DNA from: an uncultured Acidobacteriaceae bacterium
GTDB lineage: Bacteria; Acidobacteriota; Terriglobia; Terriglobales; Acidobacteriaceae
Assembly (NCBI GenBank): GCA_963818905.1
Contig: CAWFUE010000084.1
Location: 9,254 to 73,253, forward strand
DNA length: 64,000 nt
Direction of reading: 5' to 3'
Every line of letters starts with the position of its first letter. Positions within the stretch are counted from its first letter, which is position 1. Below are positions 761 to 61,958 of the stretch, one piece after another. The position numbers and the translations under genes are program-made. The notes under the pieces were generated by a model. That model did not search any database, was not told where the DNA came from, and saw only the letters and a program-made list of their open reading frames with translations.

Positions 761-3199
761 ATGAATCGGATCTGGCAAGATCTTCGCTTCGGAATACGGC
801 AGTTGCGCAAGTGGCCGGGCTTCGCGGCGGTTGCCATACTCACGCTGGCGTTAGGCATCGGTGCGAATACCGCAGTCTTCAGCATTGTCGATACCGTTCT
901 CTTGCGGCCGCTGCCCTATCGCGACCCTCAGCAGCTGGCGCTGGTGTCCGAAACTGAATCCCAGGGGGGTCACGAAGAGCTCGGTGTAGCCGCTCAGGAA
1001 TACTTAGACTATCGCGATCAGAACCGGTCGTTCTCCAGCGTCGCCGCTTTCGAGAGCGCAGGGTTTAATCTCACCGGCGAAGGTCTACCGCTGCGCGTGA
1101 ATGCAGCTCGAATGTCAGCCTCTGCGTTCCAGACCCTTGGCGTCGCGCCGATGATCGGCCGCGCTTTCAGTCCTGCGGAAGATCGCACCGGTTCTGACAA
1201 TGTGGTAGAGCTCTCGTACTCGCTTTGGCAGAACCAGTATCATGGCGATCCCAACATACTTGGCCGCACGATCAAACTGGATGAGCTACCGTACACCGTG
1301 ATAGGCGTAATGCCGCCGTCGTTTCATTTTCCCTTCGACGGCAAGCCGTTCTCCGAGATGGCCGATCTCTGGCTGCCGATCGGATTTTCCTCAGAAGTGC
1401 TCGCGCCGCAGAACCGGCTGATGGAATTTGGTGTCGGGCTCATCGGCAGATTGAAGCCCGGCGTCACCCGGGAGCAGGCTCAACAGGACGTGGAGCACGT
1501 AGCGAATGTCTTCCAGCAGACTCATCCCGGCACCTACTCGCCATCGGTTCGCGTCGTGCCGCATCTTCACGCCTTCTCCGCGTATACGGTGGAGAAAGCG
1601 CGGCCACTGGTGTTGTTGCTTTGTGCGGCCGTCATCTGCGTGCTGCTGATCGCCTGTGCGAATGTCGCCAATCTATTGCTGGCACGCGCGAGTGCGCGTA
1701 GTCGTGAGATGGCCATCCGCAGCGCCGTCGGAGCAGGGCGTCGCGTGCTGCTGCGGCAATGCCTGGTGGAAAGTTCGCTGCTGTCATTGTTAGGCGGTTG
1801 TGCGGGTGTGACGCTGGCCGTGGGTTCCGTGGCGGGACTGCGCGGCTATGGACCTGTCAGTGTTCCCCGGCTTCGCGAAGTGACGATTCATCCTGTCGCA
1901 CTGCTGTTCACGCTGGGGCTGTCGGTGCTGACGACGATTCTTTTCGGCTTCATGCCGGCGTGGCGGCTGTCGCACGTATCGCCGCAGGCGTTTCTCAAAG
2001 ACTCGGCCCAGGTCGGATCCTCGCGCAGCAGCCTGCGCTTGCAGAACTTTGTTGCCGTCGGTGAGATCGCCTTGGCTCTGGTGTTGCTCGTCGGCGGGAG
2101 CTTGCTGATCCGCAGCTTCCTGCGAGTGCTGGAAACGCCTCTCGGCTTCGATCCGAAAGATGTCTTTGTCGTGCGGACAATCTTCGACACCGAGCGCTAT
2201 CCCGATCCGGTGAAGCGCATGGCGGTGCAGAAGGAATTGCTGTCGCGGCTCGAGCGGTTGCCAGGAGTTACGGCAGTTGCCGCGGCCAGCCATCTGCCGC
2301 TCAGCGATGAGCGTGGCATCGGCTTTCATCTCGAGCATGCCGCGCCCGACGATTTCCATTTCGCGCAGAACTCGCTCATCACGCCTGGATACTTCCGTGC
2401 GATGGGAATCGGCCTTCGTGAAGGCCGCGACTTCAGCGAGCAGGACAATCCGCAGTCTCCCCTCGTGGCCATCATCAGTGAAGCCTTGGCCCGCCAGTAT
2501 TTCAGCGGTCAGGATCCAATCGGTCAGCGCTTCCAATGGGGCGATCGCGGATGGTTCACCATCATCGGCGTCGCCAATGACGTTCACGTCTCCGCGCTCG
2601 ACGCCGATCCCCCAGCCATGATCTACCAGTCGATGTTCCAGATGCAGACGTGGACCGCGGGACATATGGCGTTTCTGTTGCGTACCAGCCGGCCGCAGCA
2701 GGACCTGTTCACCGAAGTTCAGCAGCAAGTATGGTCTGTGGACAAGGAGTTGCCGCTTTACAAGAGCACCACGCTGGCGACGCTGGTCTCTGATTCGCTC
2801 GCGCAGCGTCGCTTCACCATGCTATTGCTCGGCGCATTCTCGGCCATATCTCTGTTGCTGGCGGCGATCGGATTGTTTGGAGTGATCTCATATCTGGTGT
2901 CGCAACATCAGCGGGAGATGGCGCTGCGAATGGCCTTGGGAGCGGATCGAGCTGACATCCGTCACATGGTCCTGAAGCGCGGTCTGACCTTAGGATTGTT
3001 TGGGTGTGCGATTGGCTTGGGCTTATCGGTCGTAGGCTCACGCCTGCTCACCACGAGCCTCTATCGCGTGAGCCGCTTCGATCCCACGACGCTGGTACTG
3101 GTTCCGGCGTTACTTTTGTGCGTTGTCTTGCTGGCGGTGTATTTGCCTGCCAGGCGCGCGGCATCGGTGGACCCGATGCAGGCACTAAGGATGGAATGA
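761..3199 (+). CDS. ADOP-family duplicated permease (MacB-like, two FtsX modules)
   Basis: ATG 761 follows a GAAGGA SD-like motif. The N-terminus IRQLRKWPGFAAVAILTLALGIGANTAVFS is MacB-type. Two FtsX-like membrane modules are present, with tail LPARRAASVDPMQALRME. This is the architecture of the acidobacterial duplicated orphan permease family. Confidence 0.9.
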   Translation: MNRIWQDLRFGIRQLRKWPGFAAVAILTLALGIGANTAVFSIVDTVLLRPLPYRDPQQLALVSETESQGGHEELGVAAQEYLDYRDQNRSFSSVAAFESAGFNLTGEGLPLRVNAARMSASAFQTLGVAPMIGRAFSPAEDRTGSDNVVELSYSLWQNQYHGDPNILGRTIKLDELPYTVIGVMPPSFHFPFDGKPFSEMADLWLPIGFSSEVLAPQNRLMEFGVGLIGRLKPGVTREQAQQDVEHVANVFQQTHPGTYSPSVRVVPHLHAFSAYTVEKARPLVLLLCAAVICVLLIACANVANLLLARASARSREMAIRSAVGAGRRVLLRQCLVESSLLSLLGGCAGVTLAVGSVAGLRGYGPVSVPRLREVTIHPVALLFTLGLSVLTTILFGFMPAWRLSHVSPQAFLKDSAQVGSSRSSLRLQNFVAVGEIALALVLLVGGSLLIRSFLRVLETPLGFDPKDVFVVRTIFDTERYPDPVKRMAVQKELLSRLERLPGVTAVAAASHLPLSDERGIGFHLEHAAPDDFHFAQNSLITPGYFRAMGIGLREGRDFSEQDNPQSPLVAIISEALARQYFSGQDPIGQRFQWGDRGWFTIIGVANDVHVSALDADPPAMIYQSMFQMQTWTAGHMAFLLRTSRPQQDLFTEVQQQVWSVDKELPLYKSTTLATLVSDSLAQRRFTMLLLGAFSAISLLLAAIGLFGVISYLVSQHQREMALRMALGADRADIRHMVLKRGLTLGLFGCAIGLGLSVVGSRLLTTSLYRVSRFDPTTLVLVPALLLCVVLLAVYLPARRAASVDPMQALRME

Positions 3200-5655
3200 C
3201 AGCGATGTCAACGTTAATTCACGATCTTCGTTACGCTTTTCGTCAACTGCGCAAAGCCCCGGGTTTTGCGCTGATCTCGATCTTGACGCTGGCACTGGGC
3301 ATTGGCGCCAACATCGCGGTGTTCTCCGTCACCAATGCCGTGCTGCTGAATCCCACCGGCATTCCGCATCCCGATGGGCTGGTCGCTCTTCGCGCTCGCT
3401 ATAACGCGATGCCCGATCTGAGCAACATTCCAATATCGCCGCCGGACTTCGGCGACGCAGCTGCGGACAAGAACATCTTCTCTTCGGCGGCCGTGATGCG
3501 GGCTGTCAGCTTCAACTTCGGGGGTGACAACGCAAATCCTGAACTGCTGCACGGCGCTGCAGTTTCAGCCGCGTACTTCGATGTCTTTCAGAGCCGTCCT
3601 TATCTGGGACGCGTGTTTAGGCCGGAAGAGGATGTCGCCGGGGCGCCCCGTGTAGCCGTGCTCTCGTACCACGCATGGCAAACCCATTTCGGCGGGGATC
3701 CGAATGTCGTAGGTCGCACCGTAATGCTCAACCAGCAGCCCTATCGGGTGGTTGGCGTCATGGGTTCCGATTTCAATTGGCCGAATGACGTACAGGTATG
3801 GGTCCCGCTGGCGCTGCCCGCAGGCCGTACCCAGGATGCCAAGTACCGCTATAGCGAATACCTCTTCGGCGTCGCGCGTCTTCGTCCCGGGGTGACCCTG
3901 GGACAGGCAAATGCTTATCTCGATCGCAAGGCGCAGGAAAACATCAACTCTGAAGGAGGCAAGAGTTTCGGCCGCGCCAGCGGCTGGGGAATGTTCGCTG
4001 TGCCGCTGAACGAGATGACCGCCGGGGGTTTGCGAAAGTCGCTCACGCTGCTGCTGATTTCTGTCGGCATGGTGCTGCTGATTGCCTGCGCCAACATCGC
4101 CGGCCTGCAGATAGCGCGCGCCTCGGCGCGCCAGCGCGAATTGGCAGTGCGCGTGGCCTTGGGCGCATCGCGTGGCAACCTGGTTCGTCAAGCACTGCTG
4201 GAAAGCACTGTGCTCACCGCAACCGGCGTGGCGCTGGGATACGTCATTGCCATTTTTGCCGCGCCGCTGCTGGTGCGAGGCCTGCCATCGATTCTGGGCT
4301 CGCAAATTCACGCGTCATTCGGGGGTCCGGTGCTGATTTTCGTTACTGGAATTGCCGTCATGTGCTCGCTATTGTGCGGCGTGGTTCCGGCGTGGCATCG
4401 CACCCAGCCTGGATGGTTTGGCGCGCTTCAGGAAAGCGGACGCTCGGGGACGGCGGGAGCGTCCAGCCAGCGTGCGCGCTCCGCGCTGGTAGTAGCGCAG
4501 GTTGCTCTGTCGCTGCTTCTGCTGGCAGGCGCTGGATTACTGATCGGCAGTTTGCGCGCCCTCCAGAGGGTCGATACCGGATTCGAGCCGTCGGGATTGC
4601 TGTCCGCGCGATTCTCCTTGGCCGACACGACCTACAACAATGACGACAAGCTGGCCGCTTTCTATCAGGGCCTGGAAGATCGCCTGCGCACCTTGCCTGG
4701 AGTCGAGAGCGCCGCGCTGGCCGACGCCTTGCCCTTTGACGACAGCAATAACGGTGGCGCGGCAAGCTTCTTCATCAAGGGGCGAACGGCGGGGCCGAAT
4801 GATCCCGGGCCGCACGGCAATGTCCGCATCATGTCTTCCGGGTATTTGAAGACCTTGCAGATTCCGGTGCTGATGGGTCGCGACTTCAATGAGGCCGATC
4901 ACCGAGGTGGCCAGCGCGTAGCGATGGTTGACACGGTTCTTGCTCACCGCTATTGGCCTGGAAAGAATCCCATCGGCGAACAGATTGCTTTCGACGATCG
5001 CGTGAAAGGTCCCTGGTACACGATCGTCGGGGTAGTGGCGCACTCGCGCAACTCGTCGCTGGAATCGGACACCAACGAAGGCTTTTACTACTTGCTGCTC
5101 ACCCAGGCACCGGTTTCATCGGCCTCGATTGTGGTTCGAAGTTCGCGTGCCGGCTCTGATTTGGCCGCCGAACTTGCCTCCGCGGTGCGCTCGATCGATT
5201 CCAGCGTCGCAATCTACGACGTACAAACCGTGGAGCACCTCGTGGACGAATCGCTGATTGGCCGGCGCTTTGTGGTGCTGCTGCTGACCGCCTTTGCCGG
5301 ACTGGCTCTACTGCTGGCAGGGCTCGGTCTCTATGGCGTGATTAGCTATTCGGTGCGTCTGCGCACGCGCGAGATGGGTGTTCGTCTCGCGTTGGGTGCG
5401 CAGCGCGGACGTTTATTGCGGATGATATTGCTCCAGGGCTTCCGCCTGGCCGCGCTGGGAATGATCTGCGGCGCAGTGGCCGCAGTTGCGCTGGCCCGTG
5501 TCTTCTCCAGCTTGCTGTTCCAGGTCGGCGTCTTGAGCGCGATTCCATGGCTGGTATCTACCGCGGTGCTGGTTGCGGTGGTGTTGCTGGCGACATACTT
5601 CCCGGCTCGCCGGGCAGCATCCGTCGAGCCTATGCAAGCGCTGCGGATGGAATAA
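3196..5655 (+). CDS. ADOP-family duplicated permease (third tandem copy)
   Basis: The ORF-track start at 3004 lies inside the previous gene. The family-typical N-terminus MTAMSTLIHDLRYAFRQLRKAPGFALISILTLALGIGANIAVFS begins at ATG 3196, overlapping the upstream TGA (ATGA). The C-terminal tail is FPARRAASVEPMQALRME. Confidence 0.88.
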   Translation: MTAMSTLIHDLRYAFRQLRKAPGFALISILTLALGIGANIAVFSVTNAVLLNPTGIPHPDGLVALRARYNAMPDLSNIPISPPDFGDAAADKNIFSSAAVMRAVSFNFGGDNANPELLHGAAVSAAYFDVFQSRPYLGRVFRPEEDVAGAPRVAVLSYHAWQTHFGGDPNVVGRTVMLNQQPYRVVGVMGSDFNWPNDVQVWVPLALPAGRTQDAKYRYSEYLFGVARLRPGVTLGQANAYLDRKAQENINSEGGKSFGRASGWGMFAVPLNEMTAGGLRKSLTLLLISVGMVLLIACANIAGLQIARASARQRELAVRVALGASRGNLVRQALLESTVLTATGVALGYVIAIFAAPLLVRGLPSILGSQIHASFGGPVLIFVTGIAVMCSLLCGVVPAWHRTQPGWFGALQESGRSGTAGASSQRARSALVVAQVALSLLLLAGAGLLIGSLRALQRVDTGFEPSGLLSARFSLADTTYNNDDKLAAFYQGLEDRLRTLPGVESAALADALPFDDSNNGGAASFFIKGRTAGPNDPGPHGNVRIMSSGYLKTLQIPVLMGRDFNEADHRGGQRVAMVDTVLAHRYWPGKNPIGEQIAFDDRVKGPWYTIVGVVAHSRNSSLESDTNEGFYYLLLTQAPVSSASIVVRSSRAGSDLAAELASAVRSIDSSVAIYDVQTVEHLVDESLIGRRFVVLLLTAFAGLALLLAGLGLYGVISYSVRLRTREMGVRLALGAQRGRLLRMILLQGFRLAALGMICGAVAAVALARVFSSLLFQVGVLSAIPWLVSTAVLVAVVLLATYFPARRAASVEPMQALRME

Positions 5656-12136: not shown

Positions 12137-12371
12137 CAATAGGCGACAGTTCTGGCGACGATGTTGCGTTCCGCGCAAAGTAGCAGGGGATGGCTGGCTG
12201 GCCCATCTCGCTTGGCGCGACGACGAGTTTGGGCCACTGTCGAGGTGCTTCCCAATCAGCACCGGCCACTTCTACGGTTGGGTGTTTCTCGCCTACCCGA
12301 TCTTGCCTTGCCAGCAGTACGATTACACCACCAGGGGGACGATAAAGTCGGCGATAATCGTCCAGAAACTT

Positions 12372-12818
12372 ATGAAGCGCCACGTGCTGATGTACGGGTT
12401 GATCGGTGGAATCCTGATTGCCGCGCTCAAGTGGATGGAGTATCGGTTCCTGGTAGTCGAGCATTCGATCGAAATCTACGGTGGACTGATCGCGGCAACC
12501 TTCGCCGTTCTTGGTATCTGGCTTGGCGTCAAACTAACAGGTAGGCGGCCGACGGTTGTTGTGAAAGAGATCTCTGTCCCTGGCGGGGAACCGTTCATCC
12601 CGGACGAGAGAAAACGAGAGGACCTTCATATTACCCGCCGCGAGCTTGAGATCCTGGAACTGATAGCCCAAGGCCTGAGCAACCGCGAGATCGCCGAAAA
12701 GCTTTTTGTGAGCGAGAACACGGTTAAGACTCATTCCAGCCGTGTTTTCGACAAACTAGGGGCTAGACGAAGGACGCAAGCGGTGCAGCTGGGCAAGGAA
12801 TTCGGTCTCCTCCCCTGA
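12372..12818 (+). CDS. Membrane-anchored LuxR-family (HTH) transcriptional regulator
   Basis: C-terminal LuxR/GerE HTH (ITRRELEILELIAQGLSNREIAEKLFVSENTVKTHSSRVFDKLGARRRTQAV). Two predicted TM helices at the N-terminus (LMYGLIGGILIAALKW, IYGGLIAATFAVLGIWLGV). ATG 12372 is preferred over ORF-track 12282. Confidence 0.8.
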   Translation: MKRHVLMYGLIGGILIAALKWMEYRFLVVEHSIEIYGGLIAATFAVLGIWLGVKLTGRRPTVVVKEISVPGGEPFIPDERKREDLHITRRELEILELIAQGLSNREIAEKLFVSENTVKTHSSRVFDKLGARRRTQAVQLGKEFGLLP

Positions 12819-13026
12819 TTGACTCGTGCCAGTCATTACTCGCCCTCAGAACTCCTCACCGGAACGAATGATTTTTCTCTCCGCAGCCAAAATCACCTGA
12901 AAGGATGACGACAGAGATCCTGTCTGATGCGCTATGTTGAACTCGCGTTTCGCCGATGTTCGCGAGCTGGCAGCGCCAGGTGAAGGCACGAGCGGCAGAA
13001 CCAACCAAACGAGGAGAGATTTCAAC

Positions 13027-13542
13027 ATGAAGAGTTTAGCTATGCTTATCGTCTTGGGTTTGCTCCTGGGACCGGTAGTGAAGATATCCAGGGCCGCAGG
13101 CGCCACAAACCCTGCGGAGGGACCGACTGAGGAAAATGCACTCGAGGCGGAAAAAGAACTCGGACAGGCAATGCGGACCAACGACGCGGACGGGTTCTGC
13201 CGCTTACTGGACTCGGACTGGGCAGTTGTCACTGGAAATGGCGAGATCGGTGAAGGTGACGCGGTGGGTGATGGGCAGATGAAGGCCGCCATTTGCGCTG
13301 CAATAAAGTCAGGCGATTTTACGCGGGAGACCTACGACCAGGACCTTGCCCATGCCCGAGTGCGTGTCTATGGAGACATCGCAACCGTAACCTTTAAGCT
13401 CTCGGTCTCGGGCACATTCCAGCATAAGTGGTTCGCCGTCAAAGAGGTCCAGACTGACGTGCTGAAGTGGGAAGACGGGGGATGGAAGTCCGTTTTAACC
13501 CACGAGACAAATGTCAAGGACTCGCTAAAGACTCGTAAGTGA
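13027..13542 (+). CDS. Secreted NTF2-like (DUF4440/SnoaL-like) protein
   Basis: Signal peptide MKSLAMLIVLGLLLGPVVKISRA starting at ATG 13027. NTF2-like pattern (FCRLLDSDWAVVTGNGEI ... VYGDIATVTFKLSVSG ... WKSVLTH). Confidence 0.6.
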   Translation: MKSLAMLIVLGLLLGPVVKISRAAGATNPAEGPTEENALEAEKELGQAMRTNDADGFCRLLDSDWAVVTGNGEIGEGDAVGDGQMKAAICAAIKSGDFTRETYDQDLAHARVRVYGDIATVTFKLSVSGTFQHKWFAVKEVQTDVLKWEDGGWKSVLTHETNVKDSLKTRK

Positions 13543-13621: not shown

Positions 13622-14170
13622 ATGAAAAAGACAATCGCAATCTTCGGTCTGATTTCTGGCGCCATTTCCTCGCTGATGATGGTGGCCACAGTGCCGGTCG
13701 CGAACCGATTTGGCTTTGACAGGGGCGCGGTGATCGGCTACACGACGATCGTGCTTTCGTTTTTGCTGGTCTACTTCGGCATCCGGTCCTACCGCGACAA
13801 CATCGGCGACGGCCAGATTACGTTCTCGAAAGCTTTTGCCGTCGGGATCTGCATTACTGTCATTTCGTGTATCTGCTATGTCGTGACTTGGGAGGTTCTC
13901 TATTACAACTTCCTACCTGATTTCTGGGACAAGTATGGCGCTCATCTGGTTGAGAAGCTGAAGGCCTCGGGCGCGAGTCCTGGAGCCATCCAGGCGCAGC
14001 TTCAGCAAGTGGCAAAATACAAGGAGATGTACAGGAACCCGCTCCTCAACGCAGCGATGACGTTCATCGAGCCCTTCCCGATCGGGCTCGTCATCACGCT
14101 GATCTCCGCAGTGGCCCTCAGGCGAAAGCCGCAATCGCAACCGGAACGATCGCCTTTGCCGGCATCCTGA
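13622..14170 (+). CDS. DUF4199-like four-TM membrane protein
   Basis: GAGGGA SD before ATG 13622. N-terminus MKKTIAIFGLISGAISSLMM, central VTWEVLYYNFLPDFWDKY, C-terminal YRNPLLNAAMTFIEPFPIGLVITLISAVALRRK. This matches my recollection of DUF4199. Confidence 0.6.
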   Translation: MKKTIAIFGLISGAISSLMMVATVPVANRFGFDRGAVIGYTTIVLSFLLVYFGIRSYRDNIGDGQITFSKAFAVGICITVISCICYVVTWEVLYYNFLPDFWDKYGAHLVEKLKASGASPGAIQAQLQQVAKYKEMYRNPLLNAAMTFIEPFPIGLVITLISAVALRRKPQSQPERSPLPAS

Positions 14171-14279: not shown

Positions 14280-15659
14280 TTAGCGTGTATCGCTGTCGCA
14301 GATGAGCGACACCAGCCAAATTCTAAATCGAGTTTTCTTGGCAGGATGAAGGAAGCCTTCGTAGGACTGCGCTAGATGGTAAGCACAAGCCTGGTCGCGC
14401 AGCGCCTGCACAGTGATCACAATGATGATTAGAGAAAGAATGGTGATCATCAGGTTTTGATGGGTCAGTCGCAAAACGGCGTAAGGAATTCCTGCCGCCA
14501 AAAGTGCCAGCCCTAATCCACCGGGGAAGCTGATGCGGTGGACTACCTGCGATATGTAGTCCTGCGTGCGCGCCCCGGGACGTAATCCGGGAACATATCC
14601 CCCGCATTTCCGCAGATTGTCGGCAATCGGCATGTCGTTCTGCCAAAGCACGGACGAATTGTACATATAGGCGAAGCAGGCAATCAGCATGGCGAGGACG
14701 ATCCAATACCAACCGCTGGCTGGCGTCGTCCACCGCGTTGCCGATAGCGAGAGCGTCCTGATCCAGCTGTGAGGCTGCGATTGCCAGAAACCTTGGCAAA
14801 GCTGCAACAAAGCGAGCAGGCCGATTGCAGCGGAGACCGGAAAGATCCGGCCGGAATTCAGCCGCAATGGCAGGAAGGACTGGGAGCCAGACAAAACCCG
14901 CCGCCCCACCACTCTCTTCGGATACTCAATCGGGATTTTGCGTGTTGAGCCCATCACGTAAATACTAAGAACGATCACTACCAGAACGCCTAGTACGATC
15001 CATCCCAACTGTTCCATTGCCACCAGCTTGCCAGATGCTGCCGCGATGACGTGCGCAAGCTGCTTGAGAAGGATCAGGCTTGAGCCGCCCACCAGGACGA
15101 CCTCCGCGCCCGAGCCGATCCCTTTGCGAGTGATGAAGTGACTGACTGCAGTCGAAATCAAGCTTCCCAATGTGACCAGGCAAACCACTCTCAGCGACGG
15201 CCAAAAGCTGGCTGCAGTAAACCAGTGAATCCGGCCCGGAAAGAGTCCCACCTGCTGCGAGAGATAGTGGCTGAAAGTCCAGGCAAAGAAGAAAGCAATC
15301 GGGATGGTTACTACTTGAGTGATGCGCTCCAACTTCTGCTTTCCACTCTCGCTCTTTTGCATTTCGCGCAAGCGTGACGAGACGACGGCGGTGAGCTGCA
15401 CCAGGATCATCGCCAACAGATACGGAAAGATTCCTACCGCGACGATGGAGAAGTGCTTCATCACGTCGCCGCCTGCGAAAAGATCGACCGTTCCTACGAA
15501 TGGATTATTGGCCAGGAGGTGCTGAAGCCGCTCCTCGTCGACGTTGAGCATGGGGATATCGGCCAGCAGGCGGAAAAGCAAAAGGAGCGCCAGAGTATTC
15601 GCGAAGCGATGCCCCAACTTGAGCTTGGGATCTCCGAATCCACCTGGATACAGCTCCAT
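14280..15659 (-). CDS. secY: SecY-family protein-conducting channel subunit, divergent orphan copy
   Basis: Full-length collinearity with SecY landmarks. FAGGDVMKHFSIVAVGIFPYLLAMILVQL matches FSGGAL..SIFALGIMPYISASII. MQKSESGKQKLERITQ matches KKEGE.GR.KI.QYTR. ITRKGIGSGAEVVLVGG matches ITE.GIGNG.S.II. PIEYPKRVVGRR...FLPLRLNSGRIFPV matches YAKR..GRR...HLPLKVN.AGVIP. DNLRKCGGYVPGLRPGARTQDYI matches DNLKK.G.F.PGIRPGE.T..YI. Confidence 0.85.
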   Translation of the reverse strand: MELYPGGFGDPKLKLGHRFANTLALLLLFRLLADIPMLNVDEERLQHLLANNPFVGTVDLFAGGDVMKHFSIVAVGIFPYLLAMILVQLTAVVSSRLREMQKSESGKQKLERITQVVTIPIAFFFAWTFSHYLSQQVGLFPGRIHWFTAASFWPSLRVVCLVTLGSLISTAVSHFITRKGIGSGAEVVLVGGSSLILLKQLAHVIAAASGKLVAMEQLGWIVLGVLVVIVLSIYVMGSTRKIPIEYPKRVVGRRVLSGSQSFLPLRLNSGRIFPVSAAIGLLALLQLCQGFWQSQPHSWIRTLSLSATRWTTPASGWYWIVLAMLIACFAYMYNSSVLWQNDMPIADNLRKCGGYVPGLRPGARTQDYISQVVHRISFPGGLGLALLAAGIPYAVLRLTHQNLMITILSLIIIVITVQALRDQACAYHLAQSYEGFLHPAKKTRFRIWLVSLICDSDTR

Positions 15660-16298
15660 ATGTCACTTAGGGAAGAATTTCCTTTTCCATTTCAAAAGCG
15701 GCAGGAAGTGTACACTTGTTTCGCCGCTCGCACAACGTGAGAAGATTCGCGGTGCTGATCTAATTCGGCGGCTTGGATCAGTAGCAGAGGCTCACCTGAA
15801 TTGCCCTACCCGGCCTGCGATCTGCACCAAAAACAACGGAGCATCTTCGGCGCCTATGCCGCCAGCCAGACCCAGCGAATCCTCGCCGGTCCGGCTTGTG
15901 ACGTTCTGCGCCAATCTACCAAAAATAGAATATTGACTCTTGTCATCTGTGGGAACTAATAGTCCTCAGACTAAAACTTGCCGAGGAGCACACAGCGGAT
16001 TGTGAGTTCTAGCAGCTGGTTTCTGTGCGCTCTCCCGAGCGTGCCCGGCGAAGTGCGCGTTCCACTTGGCAAAGAGTTACACGGATATCGGCGTATTGCA
16101 GAAGTGAGGTTTTTGATATAAAACGTTGGCCGTTATATTGCAGTAACAAAAGTGAAGAGTGGGCTGTTGCGAACCCGAAACTGTCCAAACTCTTTGTAAA
16201 CCTGAAACTGTTCAATCCCACTGCAAGAAAGATCGCCAGATCTCTGATGAATGATGGCGACACACTTTACTCTGAACCACGTCCCGAGGGGAGGAGAT

Positions 16299-19200
16299 AT
16301 GAGATTGAAGAGATTGATCACCGGAACGGTAGCTTTATTGGTGGCCGTCGTGCTGATGGCGCCATCGCTTATGGGGCAATCGCTGGTATCCGGCGACCTT
16401 GCCGGTACCGTCACCGACCCAAGCGGCGCGGTGGTGCCTAACGCCACGGTAACGTTGAAGAACAACGGTACTGGGGAGACACGCACCACAACCACGAATA
16501 ACAGCGGAGGGTATCGGCTCTCGCTGTTGCAGCCCGGATCGTACACCGTGAGCGCAATTGCGAGCGGCTTCAGCAAAACCCAAAAAACCGCCAGTATCAA
16601 TGTCAGCCAGACGACGATTGCCGATATGAAGCTCGCCGTGGGCAGCAGCTCGCAGACCGTAGAAGTGAGCTCGGCTGCTCCCTTGGTGCAGACGGAAAAC
16701 GCCGAGCTCTCGACCAACTTCAACCAAACCATGGTCGAAAACATGCCCAATGGCGGCAACGACTTGACCTTCGTTGCGCAGATGGCTCCCGGCGTCAACA
16801 TGAACACCGGCATGGGCTACGGCAACTTTCAGACGGCTGGACTGCCGGCTACGTCGAACGTGTTCACGATCAACGGCGAAAACCAGATGGATCCGTACCT
16901 GAACTTGAACAACTCTGGTGCGACCAACCTGATGCTGGGCAAGAACGCCGTACAGGAGGCGACGGTCATCACCAACGCTTACGGCGGACAATATGGCCAG
17001 CAGGCAGGCGCGCAGGTCAGCTACGTTACCAAGTCCGGCACCAACGCCTTCCACGGCAATGCCCAGTACTGGTGGACCGGCAGCAGCATGCAGGCGAACA
17101 GCTATTTTGCAGGTATGCAAACGCCGATACCGCCAACGCCCTTCAACAACAACAATGAATGGGCAGCTTCCATCGGCGGTCCTATCAAGAAGGACAAGCT
17201 GTTCTTCTTCTTAGACTACGAAGGAATCTCGTACATCGTCCCTTCCACGCAGCTGGTGCAGTTTCCGACAGTAGCATTCGCCAACGCGACTCTGGCGAAC
17301 CTGGCGACGATAAGTCCCGCCTCGCTTCCGCTGTACACGAAGGCGTTTAGTCTGTTCGAGCACTCTCCGTATTACGCGGCCGCAACCACGCCTCTGCCGG
17401 GCGGTGGTTGTGAGGGATCGGTCATCCCCGGTGTAACCAACTGTTTCACGCAGGGCACAGCGAGTCCTGCGCTTCCGGCGACGGAGAACCAGGGTATCGC
17501 ACGCATCGACTACAACCTCTCCGATAAAGATCACCTGTTCTGGAGTGTGACCTTCGACAGCGGTGTCCAGGCAACCTACGCAGATCCAGTAAACCAGGCG
17601 TTCAGTGCGGCCAGCTATCAGCCGTCGCAGGACGGCCAGGGCCAGTGGACGCACACCTTCGGCAGCAACGCCACCAACCAGTTCGTTTATGCAGGCAGCT
17701 ACTATCGCGCGATTTTTAACCAGTTCAACGCGCCTGCGACCTTCCCCACTCAGCTGGACCTATCAACTGGTCTTGGCTACACGAGTCTGGCCAACCAGGA
17801 GTTTGTCTTCCCGCAAGGACGCAATGTCACTCAATACCAATTGGTGGACGATTTCTCGGTGACGAAGGGCGCCCACAACCTGAAGTTTGGCGCAAATTTC
17901 CGCCGCTACGATGTCACTGACTACACATTCAGCGAGTCCACTAACCCGTACTCGTATATTGCCTCGGTGTCGGATCTTTACAACGGCATAGCTGCCGAAT
18001 TCTCCCAGAACTTCCCCAACCGTGGCAGTTATCCGGTCGCTCTATGGGGCATCGGACTCTATGCGCAGGATGAGTGGAGGGTTAACAAGAGCCTGAAATT
18101 AACTTTCGCCTTGCGTGTGGAGCATGACTCCAATCCGGTCTGCCAGCTGAACTGCGCATCGCTGTTAACCGGATCGTTCTCTACCATCAGCACCGATCCC
18201 ACGACGGCGTACAATCAGATGATCAATGCCAACCTCCATCAGATCTTTCGATCGGTGGACAAGATCGACTGGGCGCCCCGTTTCGGCTTTGCCTGGTCGC
18301 CCGGCGGCAGCGACAAGACGGTGGTTCGCGGCGGCTTTGGCCTCTTCTACGATGCCTTCCCCGCGGTGCTGGGCGACAACTTCATGACCAACATCCCAAC
18401 CGTCATTCCGGTTACACAATTCAGTTCGCCAACTGTGCCGACGGGTGTTATGTGGGCTGACCAGACAACTCCCGGCGTCAGCCCCTGGATCATCGGGTCA
18501 ACGACTGCCTCGCAGCTTCGCGCCGGCTTCCCGGCAGGTGCCTCCTACGCCTCGTTGAGCAGTGTGAATCCGGCATTTGCCTCGCCAAGCTTCAACAACA
18601 TGAGCGGCACCTTCCATATCCCGCGGTACCAGGAGTGGAGCCTGCAAATCGAACAGCAACTCGATAGCCGTAGCTCGCTGAGCTTGGCGTATATCGGCAA
18701 TCACGGCCTTAATGAGCCGGTCACCAACTACCCCAACGCTTACGCCGGCTTCGGGGGAATTCCGGCTACGCCTCCCAATCCCTATAACTTTGCGACTGTC
18801 TCTGAGATTTATTCGGGTGCGGTATCCAACGACAACCAGTTAACCGCCAGCTATCAGCGTCGGCTAACCTACGGCTTCACCGTACAGGCCAGCTACACCT
18901 GGGCGCACGCGTTGGACGAAATCTCCAACGGCGGCATTCTGCCGTATTCCTCGACCAGTTCGACCTATCAGTTGAACCCGTACAATTTGGCGAGTAACTA
19001 TGGCAATGCGGATTACGATCTCCGTAGTTCCTTCAATGCCGGGTATGTTTGGCAGACTCCGTGGAAATTCAGCAATCAGTTCGTGAATGGCGCCATCGGC
19101 GGCTGGATCCTGTCGCAGAATTTCTTCGCCCATTCCGGATTGCCGCTGGAAGTGTTTGACGCAACCAATTTTGTCAACAACTACAATAACTTTACGCCGT

Positions 19201-19592
19201 ATCTTCCAGCGCAGGTGGTCGGGCAAGGCCAGGGGAGCTGTGGTCCGTACTACCTGACCTGTCTGAACCCGAACGGGTTTGTTCCGTCGGCTGGGCTGAC
19301 AACGTTTCCAAATCAACTTCGCAACGCCTATCATGGGCCCGGGTTCTTCGACTCGGACTTCAGTATTACTAAGAACTTCAAGGTCACCGAGCGTGTAGCC
19401 TTTGGTGCGGGTGCGACCTTCTACAACGTATTCAACCATCCGAATTTTGCCCAGCCGGGAAACCTCTATGGAACGACTACGTTCGGCCAAGTCACAGAAC
19501 AGACCGCTCCGCCTACCACTCCTTTCGGATCGTTCTTCCCCGGTTCGCCTGCCGGCCGAATGATTCAACTACAGGGCAGGATCGTCTTCTAG
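16299..19592 (+). CDS. TonB-dependent receptor with carboxypeptidase-regulatory-like N-terminal domain
   Basis: GGAGGAG SD before ATG 16299 and a signal peptide [28 protein letters not shown]. CarboxypepD_reg-like segment ([49 protein letters not shown]), plug region, long beta-barrel, and terminal aromatic residue (GRIVF). Confidence 0.85.
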   Translation: [1097 protein letters not shown]

Positions 19593-19760: not shown

Positions 19761-19836
19761 TGGTGGACCTGGTCGGGATCGAACCGACGACCTCTTCCAT
19801 GCCATGGAAGCGCGCTCCCAGCTGCGCCACAGGCCC
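19761..19836 (-). tRNA. tRNA-Ala (anticodon GGC)
   Basis: The reverse complement folds by hand into a 76-nt cloverleaf: GGGCCTG/TG/GCGC-AGCTGGGA-GCGC/G/CTTCC-AT GGC AT-GGAAG/AGGTC/GTCGG-TTCGATC-CCGAC/CAGGTCC/A/CCA. It has the G3:U70 alanine identity pair, a T-loop TTCGATC and an encoded CCA. Confidence 0.95.
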
Positions 19837-20004: not shown

Positions 20005-21255
20005 TTGGCAGCGATGCCTTCGCTTTCCCTTTCCGATTTGATTGGCGCGCCGGCGATCGACAACACGGGTCTGCGCGCCGGGAAGGTGCGCGAAGTTGCG
20101 CTGACTCCGCAGGAGAGCTCCAGTCAAGTTACAGGTTTTGTGATCAAGACGCCCCAGGGCGACCGCCTGGTTCCAGCCAACGCAGTCAGCATAATTGATC
20201 ATGGCGTGCGGGTCGCCACCAACGCCGGCGACTGGGATTCCTATGGTGGCGGCGAGGGCTTGCTATTGCTGGAACGTGATCTGCTTGATCAGCAGATCAT
20301 TGATGTGCACGGCCGCAAGGTGGTGCGTGTCAATGACGTCGACATACATGCGGAACGGGACGATGGTCATGTTGTCCTCAAGATTGGCGCGGTGGACGTG
20401 GGAGCGCGCGGCGCCATACGCCGGCTGCTGAAAGGTGTGCTTCCTGCCGCAGCACTGCGCTCATTGCTGGAAAAAATTCCGCCCCGATTGATTCCCTGGG
20501 ATTTTGTCGATCTCATCGAGATCGATCCGGCCCGGCGCGTGAAGCTAAAGATCTCGCTTGCACGTCTGGCCCAGCTTCACCCCGCTGACATTGCCGACAT
20601 CGTGGAAGAGTTGCCGCCGGCTGAGCGGGAAGCCGTCTTTGAGACGCTCGATGAAGAAGTAGCCGCTGAAACCCTGGAGGAGATCGATCCCAAGGTGCAG
20701 GTCTCGATTCTCAGTTCGCTGGATTCCGACCGTGCCGCCGATATCGTCGAGGAAATGGATCCGGATGCTGCGGCTGATTTGTTGGCCGATATGCATCCCG
20801 ACGACTCGCGCGAGATCCTCACCGAGATGCAGCCGGAGGAGCGCGCAGAAGTCGCCGAGTTGATGAATTTCGAGGAGAACACGGCGGCCGGCCGCATGAC
20901 CACGGACTACATGGCGCTGACGGCGAGCGCCAAAGTGGAAGATGCTATCGAGATGCTGCGCAACTTTGAAGGTGGCCTGGAGAGCCTCAGCACGATCTAC
21001 ATTATCGGCGAAAAAGACAAACTGCTGGGCGCAGTGCCGCTAGCCAAAGTTGTGTTGGCGCCGGCGGGAACGCCGCTGATGATGCTGAGTACCGGCCATA
21101 TCACCACCATTCATCCTGGCGCCGACGAGAAGCGAATCGCGGAACTGTTCGACAAATACAACCTGCTGGCGTTGCCTGTGATCGACGACGAAGGCGTGTT
21201 GACCGGCGTGATTACCGCCGACGATGTGATCAACATGCTAAGGGCGAAGCTGTAG
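20005..21255 (+). CDS. Soluble PRC-barrel / MgtE N-terminal domain / CBS-pair protein (no MgtE membrane domain)
   Basis: N-terminal PRC-barrel-like segments (DLIGAPAIDNTGLRAGKVREV; LLDQQIIDVHGRKVVRVNDVDI). MgtE_N acidic helical repeats (LHPADIADIVEELPPAEREAVFETL ... DIVEEMDPDAAADLLADM ... EILTEMQPEERAEV). CBS pair (LLGAVPLAKV, LALPVIDDEGVLTGVITADDVI). The ORF ends without TM helices. Confidence 0.75.
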   Translation: MAAMPSLSLSDLIGAPAIDNTGLRAGKVREVALTPQESSSQVTGFVIKTPQGDRLVPANAVSIIDHGVRVATNAGDWDSYGGGEGLLLLERDLLDQQIIDVHGRKVVRVNDVDIHAERDDGHVVLKIGAVDVGARGAIRRLLKGVLPAAALRSLLEKIPPRLIPWDFVDLIEIDPARRVKLKISLARLAQLHPADIADIVEELPPAEREAVFETLDEEVAAETLEEIDPKVQVSILSSLDSDRAADIVEEMDPDAAADLLADMHPDDSREILTEMQPEERAEVAELMNFEENTAAGRMTTDYMALTASAKVEDAIEMLRNFEGGLESLSTIYIIGEKDKLLGAVPLAKVVLAPAGTPLMMLSTGHITTIHPGADEKRIAELFDKYNLLALPVIDDEGVLTGVITADDVINMLRAKL

Positions 21256-24698: not shown

Positions 24699-25817
24699 AT
24701 GGCTACAGCACCGATTACAGAAGCGGCATCCTGTTCGCTGGAAAATTATCTCGTACTGCCGGACCGCTCGATGGATGAACGCATCGCAGCGGCGAAAGAA
24801 GAACTGGGCAGTGAGTGCATTATCCTTGGTCATCATTATCAGCGCGATGAAGTAGTGCGCTTCGCCGATTGTCGTGGCGACTCCTATCGGTTGTCGCAGA
24901 TGGCGGCGCAGGCCGGGGGCAGTTACATCGTCTTCTGCGGCGTCCACTTTATGGCGGAGAGCGCGGACATTCTGGCGCGTCCCGGACAAGCCGTCCTGCT
25001 GCCCGATCTTAATGCCGGCTGCTCGATGGCGGATATGGCTGAGATCGGTCAGGTCGAAGATGCCTGGGAGCAGTTTGTGAGGCTCGGCCTCACCGACGAC
25101 GACGGAAACGGAATCACGCCGATCACCTACATGAATTCGACGGCGGCGATTAAAGCCTTTTGCGGCGAGCGCGGCGGAATGGTTTGCACTTCATCGAATG
25201 CGAAAGGCGCCTTCGACTGGGCGTTCCAGCGTAACGAAAAGATTTTCTTTCTTCCCGATCAGCATCTGGGCCGCAATACCGGATTCGCGCGCGGCATTCC
25301 ACTGGACGAAATGGTGGTGTGGGACCCGTATCAGTTGCAAGGCGGTCAGAGCGCCGAACGTTTGCGCAAGGCGAAAGTGATTCTGTGGAAGGGGCACTGT
25401 TCGGTTCACCAGCGTTTTTTACCGGAACACGTCGATAAAGTTCGCACCAGCTATCCCGCCATACAGGTGATCGTTCATCCGGAATGCCGTTGGGAGGTTT
25501 GCCAGAAGGCGGACGGAATTGGCTCGACCGACCACATCATCAAGGTAGTCACGCAAGCGGCGCCGGGATCGTCATTTGCCATCGGCACCGAAATTCACCT
25601 GGTCAATCGCCTGGCGAAGGAGAATCCCGACAAGCACGTCATTACGCTGGATGACTCGGGCTGCCTGTGCACGACCATGTTTCGCATCTCGCCGCAGCAT
25701 TTGTGCTGGGCATTGGAGAACCTGGTGGACGGCAATGTCGTGAACCAGATCCAGGTGAAAGAAAATGTCAAGATGTGGGCGCGCGCGGCTCTTGATAGGA
25801 TGTTAGAGATACAGTGA
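24699..25817 (+). CDS. nadA: Quinolinate synthase NadA
   Basis: ILGHHYQRDEVVRFADCRGDSYRLSQMAA, FCGVHFMAESADIL, PDLNAGCSMADM, YMNSTAAIKAF, VCTSSNA, HCSVH and HPEC are characteristic NadA blocks, including the Fe-S cysteines. Confidence 0.92.
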   Translation: MATAPITEAASCSLENYLVLPDRSMDERIAAAKEELGSECIILGHHYQRDEVVRFADCRGDSYRLSQMAAQAGGSYIVFCGVHFMAESADILARPGQAVLLPDLNAGCSMADMAEIGQVEDAWEQFVRLGLTDDDGNGITPITYMNSTAAIKAFCGERGGMVCTSSNAKGAFDWAFQRNEKIFFLPDQHLGRNTGFARGIPLDEMVVWDPYQLQGGQSAERLRKAKVILWKGHCSVHQRFLPEHVDKVRTSYPAIQVIVHPECRWEVCQKADGIGSTDHIIKVVTQAAPGSSFAIGTEIHLVNRLAKENPDKHVITLDDSGCLCTTMFRISPQHLCWALENLVDGNVVNQIQVKENVKMWARAALDRMLEIQ

Positions 25818-49798: not shown

Positions 49799-49912
49799 TT
49801 TCCTGCGACCCGCAAATTCAAAGTCGGCTCTACCTGCAATCGACGTGCAGTCCCGGCGCCGGCAAGGGCTGACAATTGCTCATATTTCATTACCCAAAGT
49901 GGATGTAGCTTT

Positions 49913-51160
49913 ATGCGCGAAAGTACAAAAATTTCGGAGATGAACGGCCCTGCGGTGGACGATCGCGTCTTAGGAATTGAGCCTGAAGCGGTAGAGCATC
50001 GCGAAGTCGATCTTATCGATTTTCTCTTGCTACTGGCTCAAAAGAAAAAGGCAATTCTGCTGATTACGATTGCCGTTGCCGTTCTGGCCGCAATTGTTTC
50101 CTGGCTTCTTCCCAAGATGTACACGGCGACTGCTACCATCCTTCCCCCGCAGGAAAGTCAGTCGACTTTGACGACGATGCTGGGACAGTTCGGGGCTCTG
50201 ACCGGATTGGGGGGCAGCGAGCTGAATCTGAAAAATCCGTCCGATCTGTTTGCAGCTATGCTCAAGAGCCGAACTATCGAAGATGATCTTATCGATGGCT
50301 TTGATCTCCGCCACGTTTATGGTGTCAAAACCTATCAGGCCGCACGCAAGGCTTTGGAATCTCGCAGTCGAATCGATGCAGGAGACGAAGGACTAATCAC
50401 AATCGCGGTCACCGACCGCGATGCCAAGCGGGCTGCGGATCTGGCCAATGCGTACGTTACGGAATTGCACTCTTTGAACGACCATCTTGCCATTTCCGAG
50501 GCTGCTCAACGGCGTCTGTTCTATCAGCAAAAACTGGACGCAGAGCGGGAAGATCTGTCACGGGCTGAGTTGGGCTTGCAGCAGGTGCAGCAGAAGAGTG
50601 GTCTGATCCAGCCCGATGCGCAGGGGAAGGCGATTGTCGATGCGGTTGCCACCACTCGCGCCGCAGTCGCCACTCAGGAGGTGCAAATCCAGGCGATGCG
50701 CACCTACGCGACGGCGAACAATCCGGATCTGAAACGAGCGGAAGAGGAGTTGGCTGGCTTGCGGGCACAACTGGCGAAGCTGGAGCGCGATACCGGGGAA
50801 GCGGGTAATGGCAACCTGGAAGTGCCCACTCGGCGTTTGCCCGAAGTTGAATTGGCTTATCTTCGCCAGATGCGTGACGTCAAGTATCACGAGTCGGTAT
50901 ATGACTTTCTGAGCAAGCAGTTGGAAGCGGCGCGAATCGATGAGGCAAAAGATGCGGTGATGGTGCAGGTCGTCGACAAAGCGGTACCACCCGAAACCAA
51001 GTCGAGCCCTCGCCGTACGTTCATCATACTGGGATCGACGATAACCGCTTTCGTGCTCTCCTGCTTCTGGATTCTTCTGACAGAAGCGGTGAAGCGCAGG
51101 CAGCGTGATCCCAATGACCGCATTCGGCTGGCACGGCTTAAGCAGGCGCTGCGGTTTTAG
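49913..51160 (+). CDS. Polysaccharide co-polymerase / chain-length determinant (Wzz/GumC-like, no kinase domain)
   Basis: Wzz N-terminal block (IDLIDFLLLLAQKKKAILLITIAVAVLAAIVSWLLPKMYTATATILP). Long periplasmic coiled-coil. C-terminal TM preceded by SPRRTFIILGSTITAFVL. No Walker motifs. Confidence 0.75.
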   Translation: MRESTKISEMNGPAVDDRVLGIEPEAVEHREVDLIDFLLLLAQKKKAILLITIAVAVLAAIVSWLLPKMYTATATILPPQESQSTLTTMLGQFGALTGLGGSELNLKNPSDLFAAMLKSRTIEDDLIDGFDLRHVYGVKTYQAARKALESRSRIDAGDEGLITIAVTDRDAKRAADLANAYVTELHSLNDHLAISEAAQRRLFYQQKLDAEREDLSRAELGLQQVQQKSGLIQPDAQGKAIVDAVATTRAAVATQEVQIQAMRTYATANNPDLKRAEEELAGLRAQLAKLERDTGEAGNGNLEVPTRRLPEVELAYLRQMRDVKYHESVYDFLSKQLEAARIDEAKDAVMVQVVDKAVPPETKSSPRRTFIILGSTITAFVLSCFWILLTEAVKRRQRDPNDRIRLARLKQALRF

Positions 51161-51338
51161 TCAGGGTAGTCATGTGGCGCTCCTCACCTGGAACCGCGCC
51201 GGCAAGGTGCAGCTTGCCAGCAAAACCCTGCCGGATTCACTTCCACGATAAGAGAAGGACCGAACGGAACACAGAGCGGCGACCCGGAATTCGTAACAGC
51301 CTCCAGCGCAGCGCGCTAGTTCAGTCAGTAAGCCAAGA

Positions 51339-53473: not shown

Positions 53474-53524
53474 GTGATGGAATGTGCCAGCCTGTCAGTC
53501 CAGGCATTCTGATTCAGATCTCCG

Positions 53525-54802: not shown

Positions 54803-54817
54803 CCGGGCGGATCGTCC

Positions 54818-55924: not shown

Positions 55925-55986
55925 CTTCTGTCCAATTGTGAACTGAGTTTTGTGTAAACCAGACGGTTGGCGGATTGTTGTGAAAG

Positions 55987-57494: not shown

Positions 57495-57635
57495 CTGTGC
57501 GTCTGGCCATTCCGTATTGGGCGCACTTGCCCTGATTTAGCAGAGAACCTTAATCTCAGCGGTTGCCGGCTGGCAGCGAGTGCATTCGATGTCATCCGCT
57601 TTGCTTCTCTCACGAACCCCTAGATCGGAGTTACC

Positions 57636-59063: not shown

Positions 59064-59091
59064 GCTAGCTGGGCCGTTGCAGCGCTTCCCT

Positions 59092-60042: not shown

Positions 60043-60047
60043 CGATC

Positions 60048-60968: not shown

Positions 60969-60995
60969 AGGGAATGGAAGATCGGAGAGGCCCGT

Positions 60996-61778: not shown

Positions 61779-61958
61779 CCGGCTGGCGCTGAAAGCTACA
61801 AATTGCTTGTACATTAGTATAGCCGAGCGGTCGAGTGCCGGCCAGAATGTTTGGCAGAACAGATCGCTTGCAATCACCGACGGATTTTCCGCTACTACAG
61901 AACCGCAGCATGAATCCGAAGCAGAGTCGAGAGCAGTGCTTCACGACCGGGGACACCT

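Follow-up and report, generated by a model that had tools for sequence, protein, structure and literature searches.

A rare clade of orphan SecY paralogs with an altered pore in diderm soil and peat bacteria

We analysed a 64,000-nucleotide stretch of DNA from an uncultured Acidobacteriaceae bacterium (NCBI GenBank assembly GCA_963818905.1, contig CAWFUE010000084.1, positions 9,254 to 73,253 of the forward strand), hereafter the window. A gene on its minus strand, at 14280..15659, encodes a divergent SecY-like protein; it is very probably a functional SecY paralog that co-exists with a canonical copy, and it belongs to a clade of orphan SecY paralogs that was previously unannotated, is rare and occurs sporadically in diderm soil and peat bacteria. 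As to its role, the reading that we favour is an accessory translocon core whose gating is relaxed or altered and which would use the housekeeping SecE, SecG, SecA and ribosome; we hold it with about as much confidence as doubt. To our knowledge, Gram-negative bacteria are generally regarded as having one secY, essential and extremely conserved, and the only well-studied bacterial SecY duplicates that we know of belong to the Gram-positive SecA2/SecY2 glycoprotein exporter.

A second secY under purifying selection

The preliminary description of this DNA, which proposed the gene as a second secY, had itself named three ways in which the proposal could fail: the gene could be the only secY of the genome, relocated; the same gene could sit in the spc operon of relatives; or it could be decaying. 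Two relatives bear on the first two. On contig_15058 (902 kb), a canonical SecY of 462 amino acids (aa) is encoded, followed by adk, map, infA, rpsM, rpsK, rpsD, rpoA and rplQ, and a paralog with 67% identity to the window protein lies 9 kb downstream of this array on the same strand. The full rplP...rplO-secY-adk-map array is present on contig_135246 (219 kb), with the paralog ~10 kb downstream, and the canonical SecYs of the two contigs measure 462-463 aa. Since both relatives carry canonical secY and paralog on one contig, the paralog is a true second copy and not a relocated housekeeping gene. The first doubt is thereby answered in close relatives, and as for the second, the spc slot is held by the canonical gene. 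The claim that the window gene lies outside the spc operon also stood: tblastn of the window with the 19 proteins of a relative's operon gave a single match, the paralog itself at 32% identity, and no spc-operon gene.

Across more than 100 clusters and more than 7,900 matches, canonical SecYs of Korobacteraceae share 88-99% identity, and the window protein shares just 32% with the canonical form. The paralog is present in a small fraction of the genomes that have a Korobacteraceae-type canonical SecY. A relocated, fast-evolving sole housekeeping secY would agree with the lack of any other secY in the 64-kb window, but it is at odds with the two relatives that hold both genes with the canonical one in the spc slot, with the strong conservation of the canonical protein, and with a score under the housekeeping equivalog cutoff (given below); we consider it very unlikely.

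The paralog is under purifying selection. All copies are intact and full-length, and 45 columns are invariant within the clade. By Nei-Gojobori estimates, from which all ratios of non-synonymous to synonymous substitution (dN/dS) were taken, the paralogs of loci L002 and L003 have a dN/dS of 0.10 (dS 0.50), and the canonical secY genes of the same genomes one of 0.07 (dS 0.59). Between the window and locus L026, a near-identical relative with 97.6% amino acid identity in the paralog and the same local synteny, we counted 21 synonymous and 11 non-synonymous changes (dN/dS 0.17). A decaying or non-functional duplicate could account for the many substituted conserved residues, for the annotation of clade members as hypothetical by NCBI, and for the zero matches upstream of the paralog in a sigma-70-like promoter and terminator scan, which may not suit Acidobacteria. 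However, dN/dS values of 0.10-0.17 reject decay, and the same holds for an open reading frame (ORF) that is intact and full-length in every lineage, for the 45 clade-invariant columns, which include new clade-specific motifs, and for an AlphaFold2 model that is confident over the transmembrane (TM) core. This alternative is largely refuted already, and we grant it very little probability.

Family membership and predicted fold

The 459-aa minus-strand ORF announced in the preliminary description is present exactly at 14280..15659, with an ATG start and a stop after 459 codons. Its product matches the Pfam SecY family (PF00344) over residues 71-417 with 170.3 bits (E=8.2e-50; gathering cutoff 32.2), covering profile positions 1-302 of 306. 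In a phmmer search of PDB sequences, residues 18-437 align with residues 17-423 of Geobacillus SecY 5eul_Y (E=3e-45), and further matches are the SecYs of E. coli, Thermus, Thermotoga and Aquifex, so the claimed collinearity with SecY is borne out: the alignment to solved bacterial SecYs runs end to end.

An AlphaFold2 model built from 25 clade members has a mean predicted local distance difference test score (pLDDT) of 74 and a predicted TM-score (pTM) of 0.70, the TM core being confident. With this model as the query, bacterial SecY chains take the first 17 places among the Foldseek matches, at TM-scores of 0.72-0.82; normalised by target, the best reach 0.77-0.82 across 420-445 aligned columns. 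The model has the ten-helix clamshell and the plug helix of SecY, and the plug motif is present as F61-A-G-G. Positive-inside charge bias is kept as well, with 27 Lys and Arg residues in cytoplasmic loops vs 7 in periplasmic loops, which points to a normal SecY topology in the inner membrane. Compared with housekeeping SecY (TIGR00967; E. coli 5abb_A, Thermus 5aww_Y, Geobacillus 5eul_Y), the paralog belongs to the same Pfam family, with the same predicted topology and fold over ~430 residues, whereas its identity to canonical SecYs is only 26-32%.

The C-terminal tail (residues 438-459; 14283..14348, minus strand) was said to be unrelated to SecY, and it does fall outside the SecY match: the PDB and NCBIfam alignments stop before it, and it cannot be aligned to SecY and varies within the clade, whose consensus is undefined past EGFL. 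The AlphaFold2 model predicts a helix at residues 439-456.

Scores on NCBIfam models separate the paralog from both known SecY types. It reaches 209.2 bits on the housekeeping equivalog TIGR00967, under the cutoff of 253.6, and only 92.2 bits on TIGR02920 (cutoff 249.6) and 95.1 bits on NF009082 (cutoff 353), the two SecY2 models. Score, genomic context and pore ring set it apart from housekeeping SecY, and score and partners from SecY2.

A member of the Gram-positive accessory Sec system (SecA2/SecY2) transferred to diderms could be imagined, as the paralog is indeed a second, divergent SecY and glycosyltransferase genes lie downstream, on the opposite strand, at loci L022, L006, L007 and L023. 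These glycosyltransferases, however, are convergent, not co-oriented, and kept only among close relatives, and the housekeeping model outscores both SecY2 models. Pfam detected no SecA, Asp or accessory Sec-type glycosyltransferase domain among the 26 larger ORFs of the window (smaller ORFs were left out), which upholds within that scope the claimed absence of SecA2/Asp accessory genes, and no linkage to secA2, asp1-3(-5) or Gtf genes was seen in ~14 related loci. We therefore regard such a transfer as extremely unlikely, and the distinction from the Gram-positive system drawn in the preliminary description holds. SecY2 of streptococci and staphylococci resembles the paralog in being a second, divergent, presumably non-essential channel beside housekeeping SecY; the paralog differs by its diderm hosts, its independent clade and the lack of SecA2, Asp, Gtf or a serine-rich glycoprotein substrate nearby.

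A rare and separate clade

Among 5.8 billion proteins searched, the matches were the query, ~36 proteins at 40-69% identity and then, after an abrupt fall to ~30%, the ordinary SecYs. Profile searching extends the clade to only 42 clusters, all metagenome-derived or from metagenome-assembled genomes (MAGs), and its members are named 'hypothetical protein' by NCBI and auto-named SecY by JGI. An exhaustive hidden Markov model (HMM) scan of 1.84 billion representatives yielded 9,012 SecY-like proteins, ~30 of them in the paralog clade. Core members score more than 240 bits higher on the paralog HMM than on the canonical one, and for ordinary SecYs the canonical HMM is ahead by 150-380 bits; the window protein, which was in the training set, scores 692 bits on the paralog HMM vs 256 on the canonical HMM.

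A neighbour-joining tree built without an outgroup places the clade at the end of a long stem, monophyletic in 200 of 200 bootstraps. On average it is 1.8-2.0 distant from canonical SecYs, about twice the 0.85 found among canonical SecYs of different phyla. The window protein bears the clade signature, that is (E. coli position in brackets) L81 (L86), L189 (L191), S276 (S/A/T278), G280 (G282) and D65 (acidic 71), with the motifs LLANNP and GLFPGRIHWFT. The clade could have arisen by duplication of an acidobacterial canonical secY; paralogs and acidobacterial canonical SecYs group together in no more than 9 of 200 bootstraps, and the mean distance is a little shorter (1.77 vs 2.00).

By the taxon labels of the database records, the carriers are Acidobacteriaceae/Korobacteraceae MAGs, 'Burkholderiales' or 'beta proteobacterium' MAGs (one on a 1.7-Mb contig), and Verrucomicrobiae/Opitutaceae MAGs, including the closed 5.16-Mb chromosome OY970130.1. 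The clade thus reaches beyond Acidobacteriota and is spread patchily over three phyla; a scan of GTDB species genomes found ten loci with the paralog. Three very divergent SecY-like representatives (P0210, P0211 and P0213), which score poorly on both the canonical and the paralog HMM, form a sister trio that shares the LLAxN(L) pre-plug motif and partly L86 and G282, lacks the WFT insertion, and has Tyr or Leu at 278 and Pro or Trp at 187. P0210 (locus L025, 634-1962) is also outside the spc context, beside methyltransferases and a MalT-like LuxR regulator. Full-text literature searches found no account of stand-alone SecY paralogs in diderm bacteria, an absence that is not in itself proof.

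Conserved and remodelled residues

We aligned 23 canonical and 25 clade sequences and used E. coli numbering, the E. coli sequence having been verified as identical to 5abb_A; below, window residues are given with their E. coli counterparts in brackets where needed. Of the 107 columns at least 90% conserved in canonical SecYs, the clade retains 47 and has lost 60 (56%), mostly in TM2b, TM4, TM5, TM7, TM8 and TM10. This count, together with the sub-cutoff TIGR00967 score, agrees with the earlier remark that many near-invariant residues are substituted. Cytoplasmic loop C5 retains more of these columns than any other region (11 of 15), followed by C4 with 4 of 6, and the plug keeps 3 of 3. Losses are heavy in TM2b (4 of 12 retained), TM4 (1 of 6), TM5 (2 of 8), TM7 (2 of 7), TM8 (1 of 4) and TM10 (3 of 10).

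The conserved parts include the predicted motor-docking loops and the plug. Loop C5 (residues 343-368; 14556..14633, all features in this section being on the minus strand) contains PGLRPG with R360 (E. coli R357), T365 and Y368, and loop C4 (residues 236-266; 14862..14954) contains YPKRVVGRR; judged by sequence, these would be the SecA/ribosome docking elements, and all are present in the window protein. Across the clade, R357 of PGxRPG is kept in 23 of 25 paralogs, T362 and Y365 are kept, and Y429 of Y429-x-G in 24 of 25. The plug helix (TM2a region, residues 54-69; 15453..15500) preserves its F-A-G-G core, with F67, G69 and G70 in 24-25 of 25 sequences, while A71 is replaced by Glu or Asp in all 25 (D65 in the window) and R74 by His in 21 (H69). 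Plug F-x-G-G, P84-Y85, C4 YxKR, C5 PGxRPG with R357, T362, Y365 and Y429-x-G are thus shared with housekeeping SecY.

Pore ring and lateral gate, in contrast, are remodelled. Position 278 is Ile in all 23 canonical SecYs and Ser in 21, Ala in 2 and Thr in 2 of the paralogs. In the window protein it is S276, in the lateral-gate/pore helix TM7 (residues 266-289; 14793..14864), which also has A277 (F279), G280 (S282) and L285 (P287). Clade-wide, S282 is Gly in 25 of 25 and P287 is Leu in 20 of 25, with F279 changed to Ala and S89 to Leu. At the start of TM5 (GIGSGAEVVLVGGS, residues 180-193; 15081..15122) lie A185 (I187), with E186 adjacent, L189 (I191) and S193 (I195). Position 187 is Glu in 14-15 of 25 paralogs and otherwise Ala, and an acidic residue stands at 187 or 188 in 24 of 33 core members; I191 is Leu in all 25 and I195 is Ser in 64%. 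A salt bridge between the acidic 187/188 and a basic 273 found no support from covariation, the counts being 10/3/14/6 without association.

The heavily substituted lateral-gate helix TM2b (residues 70-92; 15384..15452) carries the pore-ring positions I77 and L81. Relative to canonical SecY it shows F78V, L80A/V, M83F, I86L and S89L/M, and retains P84-Y85. TM10 (residues 406-420; 14400..14444) carries pore-ring I412 (E. coli I408), with G402/G403 changed to T406/I407. In the clade, the ring positions I82, I86 and I408 become Ile or Leu, Leu (24 of 25) and Val or Ile, respectively. The hydrophobic six-residue ring of Ile, Val, Leu or Met is therefore not kept in the paralog, given S276 and A185 with E186 adjacent. 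The alignment thus answers the question of pore-ring, plug and lateral-gate residues posed at the outset: the plug core is kept, and the ring and gate are remodelled.

Two periplasmic motifs are new. The pre-plug motif LLAxNP (LLANNP in the window; loop P1, residues 48-53; 15501..15518) has L49, A50, N52 and P53 in 25 of 25 paralogs, where canonical SecYs have Phe, Asp or Gly. The motif QQxGLFPGxIHWFTxASF (residues 135-152; 15204..15257) includes a stretch inserted into the TM3-TM4 loop and absent from canonical SecY; G138, F140, P141, W146, F147, T148 and F152 are invariant in 25 of 25, and the W146, F147 and T148 columns are gaps in all canonical sequences. AlphaFold confidence is low there (pLDDT below 50 at residues 139-148). 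Set against housekeeping SecY as a whole, the paralog lies outside the spc operon, co-exists with the canonical copy in two relatives, has Ser in place of pore-ring I278 and often an acid at 187/188, and adds periplasmic motifs and an insertion.

Proposed function and its alternatives

The accessory-translocon reading is favoured because the motor-docking elements are kept while positions that govern gating stringency are naturally altered. Here we lean on a cell-free mutational map of E. coli SecY published in 2026 (PMC13537251). Mutants of the C4 and C5 loops are severely defective because these loops are the SecA and ribosome contacts, and I278S, I278A and changes at I195, M83, I86, G402, G403 and I408 give super-active translocation, the super-active substitutions mapping to the pore ring and TM10 (PMC13537251). 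The same paper identifies I278S as a PrlA suppressor from Osborne & Silhavy 1993, and its authors state that SecY evolved for proofreading and membrane integrity and not for maximal activity (PMC13537251). The clade has fixed Ser (or Ala or Thr) at I278 and shows I195S, M83F, I86L, G402T, G403I and TM10 changes at these hotspots, of which only I278S and I278A are amino acid changes identical to the super-active ones in E. coli. The E. coli Prl alleles are, moreover, single laboratory mutations in an essential gene, whereas the changes in the paralog are natural, combined by the dozen and placed in a separate gene.

On this analogy, the paralog would act as a second SecY-type channel subunit beside the spc-operon housekeeping secY. 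It would dock the ribosome and/or SecA through its conserved C4 and C5 loops and, as no dedicated SecE, SecG or SecA is encoded nearby, probably borrow the housekeeping partners. Rebuilding has affected the pore ring and the lateral gate (TM2b/TM7), the surroundings of the plug, TM10 and the periplasmic loops, and Ser, Ala or Thr for Ile278, often with an acid at 187/188, may lower the gating barrier and relax signal-sequence proofreading as in E. coli. Such a channel could handle substrates or conditions poorly served by the stringent housekeeping channel, and may have a dedicated substrate set or export route.

Several observations weigh against this reading. About 60 other conserved columns are changed, so the effects of single E. 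coli substitutions are not simply transferable, and the pore might have regained tightness and selectivity through co-substitutions. In SecYE structures, TM1, TM5, TM6 and TM10 face SecE; these helices are also heavily substituted in the paralog, which makes use of the housekeeping SecE uncertain. The GRR segment of C4 is degenerate, with deletions, in part of the clade, and the invariant LLAxNP and GLFPG..HWFT motifs, which have no known counterpart, hint at a function or partner outside this model. To these we add the lack of a sigma-70-like promoter match noted above and the result of tblastn, which found no canonical secY within the 64-kb window.

One alternative is a neofunctionalised SecY fold without polypeptide transport. 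Such a protein would be a conduit for ions, small molecules or peptides, or a regulator or decoy titrating SecA, ribosomes or SecE. Its pore is polar and often acidic (S278, E187/E188, plug D/E71), mutations of pore and plug make SecY anion-leaky and were selected in Methylobacterium for chloride export (PMC4271186), 56% of the canonical-conserved columns are lost, and the clade is twice as distant from canonical SecY as canonical SecYs of different phyla are from one another. However, the best-kept elements are needed only for polypeptide transport (PGxRPG with R357, T362, Y365, Y429, plug F-x-G-G and P84-Y85), four of the six pore-ring positions are still large aliphatic residues, and the overall fold is unchanged in the model; we think this alternative rather unlikely.

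The paralog could also be a spare target or immunity copy, with which export continues or intoxication is avoided when SecY-directed agents (contact-dependent inhibition (CDI) toxins entering via SecY, bacteriocins, or natural products binding pore or plug) attack the housekeeping SecY. Its patchy and rare occurrence (three phyla, 42 clusters) is what one expects of an accessory, horizontally mobile trait, and toxin-antitoxin modules, insertion sequence (IS) elements, a reverse transcriptase, a resolvase and a Mu-like transposase lie near it in several genomes. The altered surfaces are also those mapped for inhibitor resistance, decatransin resistance mapping to the pore ring and plug (PMC8082313), and CDI toxins are reported to exploit SecY for import (PMC7858069). 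On the other side, no toxin, bacteriocin or biosynthetic cluster is linked to the paralog in ~14 neighbourhoods, PADLOC gave no match to any defence system, and the clade-invariant periplasmic motifs suggest a gained positive function rather than mere escape. We judge this explanation improbable.

For the accessory translocon we further sketch, tentatively and with more doubt than belief, a specific form: diderm soil and peat bacteria of at least three phyla would carry a horizontally spread, 'unlocked' second core (PrlA-type, with a polar or acidic pore) that uses the housekeeping SecE, SecG, SecA and ribosome as a separate low-stringency export or insertion route. It might serve atypical signals, or conditions in which the proton-motive force or the main channel is compromised, and its periplasmic motifs might bind a partner.

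Stand-alone SecY duplicates occur elsewhere. An extra SecY in the Bacillus cereus/anthracis group, independent of SecA2, and SCY2 of plastids, which pairs with a dedicated SECA2, seem to act together with the general machinery or beside it, on certain substrates or in certain growth phases. Both belong to other lineages than the paralog, the Bacillus protein to a monoderm Firmicute, and are likened to it by description only.

Gene neighbourhoods of the paralog

Across ~14 neighbourhoods, all-against-all BLAST of the ORFs in 11-14 loci and Pfam gene tables revealed no partner gene recurring across lineages, and no recurrent SecE- or SecG-like small ORF stood next to the paralog in the 11-14 loci. 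Synteny is confined to close relatives. The preliminary description had suggested testing whether the neighbourhood is conserved in relatives; it is in L026, which shares the local synteny of the window, and not beyond close relatives.

In the Korobacteraceae MAGs L012 (1-11371) and L018/L003 (contig_135246, ~48.1-60.6 kb), the spc/alpha ribosomal operon and the paralog share a strand, with the paralog only 9-10 kb further downstream. Local duplication could have left this arrangement behind, or it could be coincidental; the window does not keep it. At L012 the paralog starts 4 bp past an Apiosidase-like glycoside hydrolase gene. The betaproteobacterial-labelled loci L006 (2510-3757), L007 (11275-12537) and L022 (7368-8630) share a layout seen in these three only, in which the 3' end of the paralog overlaps a convergent GT2 glycosyltransferase gene by 4 bp and a small ORF and a PylC-like ATP-grasp gene follow.

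Mobile-element and toxin-antitoxin genes were observed within a few kb of the paralog at L012 (12890-14407), L016 (11418-12072), L021 (2206-3234 and 10259-12810) and L024 (1-1298 and 8585-9087), among them MazE-PIN, BrnT, DUF6364-PIN, Phd-ParE, an IS110 transposase, a reverse transcriptase, a resolvase and a Mu-like transposase. Because such genes recur near the paralog in unrelated genomes, they suggest that it sits in variable genomic regions, and they are consistent with horizontal spread.

Features of the window

On the plus strand, the paralog is flanked by a DUF4199 gene (13622-14170), a DUF4440 gene (12934-13542) and a gene for a GerE/LuxR protein whose N-terminal half is hydrophobic (12282-12818), and, on the other side and divergent from it, by a gene for a CarboxypepD_reg plus OMP_b-brl_4 outer-membrane barrel (16251-19592), all assigned by Pfam. 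Of the neighbours listed in the preliminary description, the DUF4199 protein and the membrane-anchored LuxR regulator stand, and 'TonB-dependent receptor' is only approximate because the product is the barrel just named; the DUF4440 gene, between the other two plus-strand genes, had been overlooked. The upstream gap, given there as 640 bp, measures 591 bp when the barrel gene is taken from its first ATG, and would be ~639 bp if the barrel starts 16 codons later, at Met17. The later start is suggested by the L026 homologue, which is called 16 residues shorter (1097 vs 1113 aa).

The gap itself (15660..16250), lying between divergent genes, presumably contains both promoters. It matched no Rfam family, showed no stable structured 5' leader (fold z-score 0.62), and contains only mechanical small ORFs, none with a hydrophobic leader such as a leader or arrest peptide upstream of the paralog would have. 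Positions 15660-16250 are ~96% identical to L026 4259-4980 save for an 82-bp indel absent from the window; nothing was recognised within the 82-bp segment extra in L026, and phylogenetic footprinting of the gap against L026 was uninformative at this similarity.

Elsewhere in the window, two tandem nadA riboswitches (Rfam RF03013; 24507-24607 and 24616-24687, plus strand; 51.7 and 54.8 bits, gathering score 37.5) are directly followed 3' by a gene for quinolinate synthase NadA (ORF 24699-25817; Pfam E=9e-101); this motif is characteristic of Acidobacteria and, along with the nearest relatives being Korobacteraceae MAGs, would speak for an acidobacterial origin of the window. Between the outer-membrane barrel gene and a gene with MgtE_N/CBS/PRC domains (20005-21255) is a tRNA-Ala (GGC) gene (19761-19836, minus strand). 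Two large MacB_PCD/FtsX permease ORFs in tandem (761-3199 and 3004-5655, plus strand) overlap by ~200 bp as mechanical calls, and the second probably starts further downstream; Acidobacteria commonly have such permeases in expanded families. A cluster for polysaccharide biosynthesis and export (47426-61877), with a Wza-like Poly_export/SLBB protein, Wzz/GNVR, a Polysacc_synt flippase and a Bac_transf initiating sugar transferase, appears unrelated to the paralog.

Significance

The clade exposes an annotation gap, as the same proteins are hypothetical at NCBI and plain SecY at JGI. A pore-ring substitution that it has fixed naturally, I278S, is one that geneticists isolated as a proofreading suppressor. 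These paralogs may supply ready-made 'super-active' channel variants for secretion engineering. If the favoured reading is true, stringent and relaxed translocons can run side by side in one cell, and the clade would be a natural experiment on the trade-off among translocation efficiency, signal-sequence fidelity and membrane sealing.

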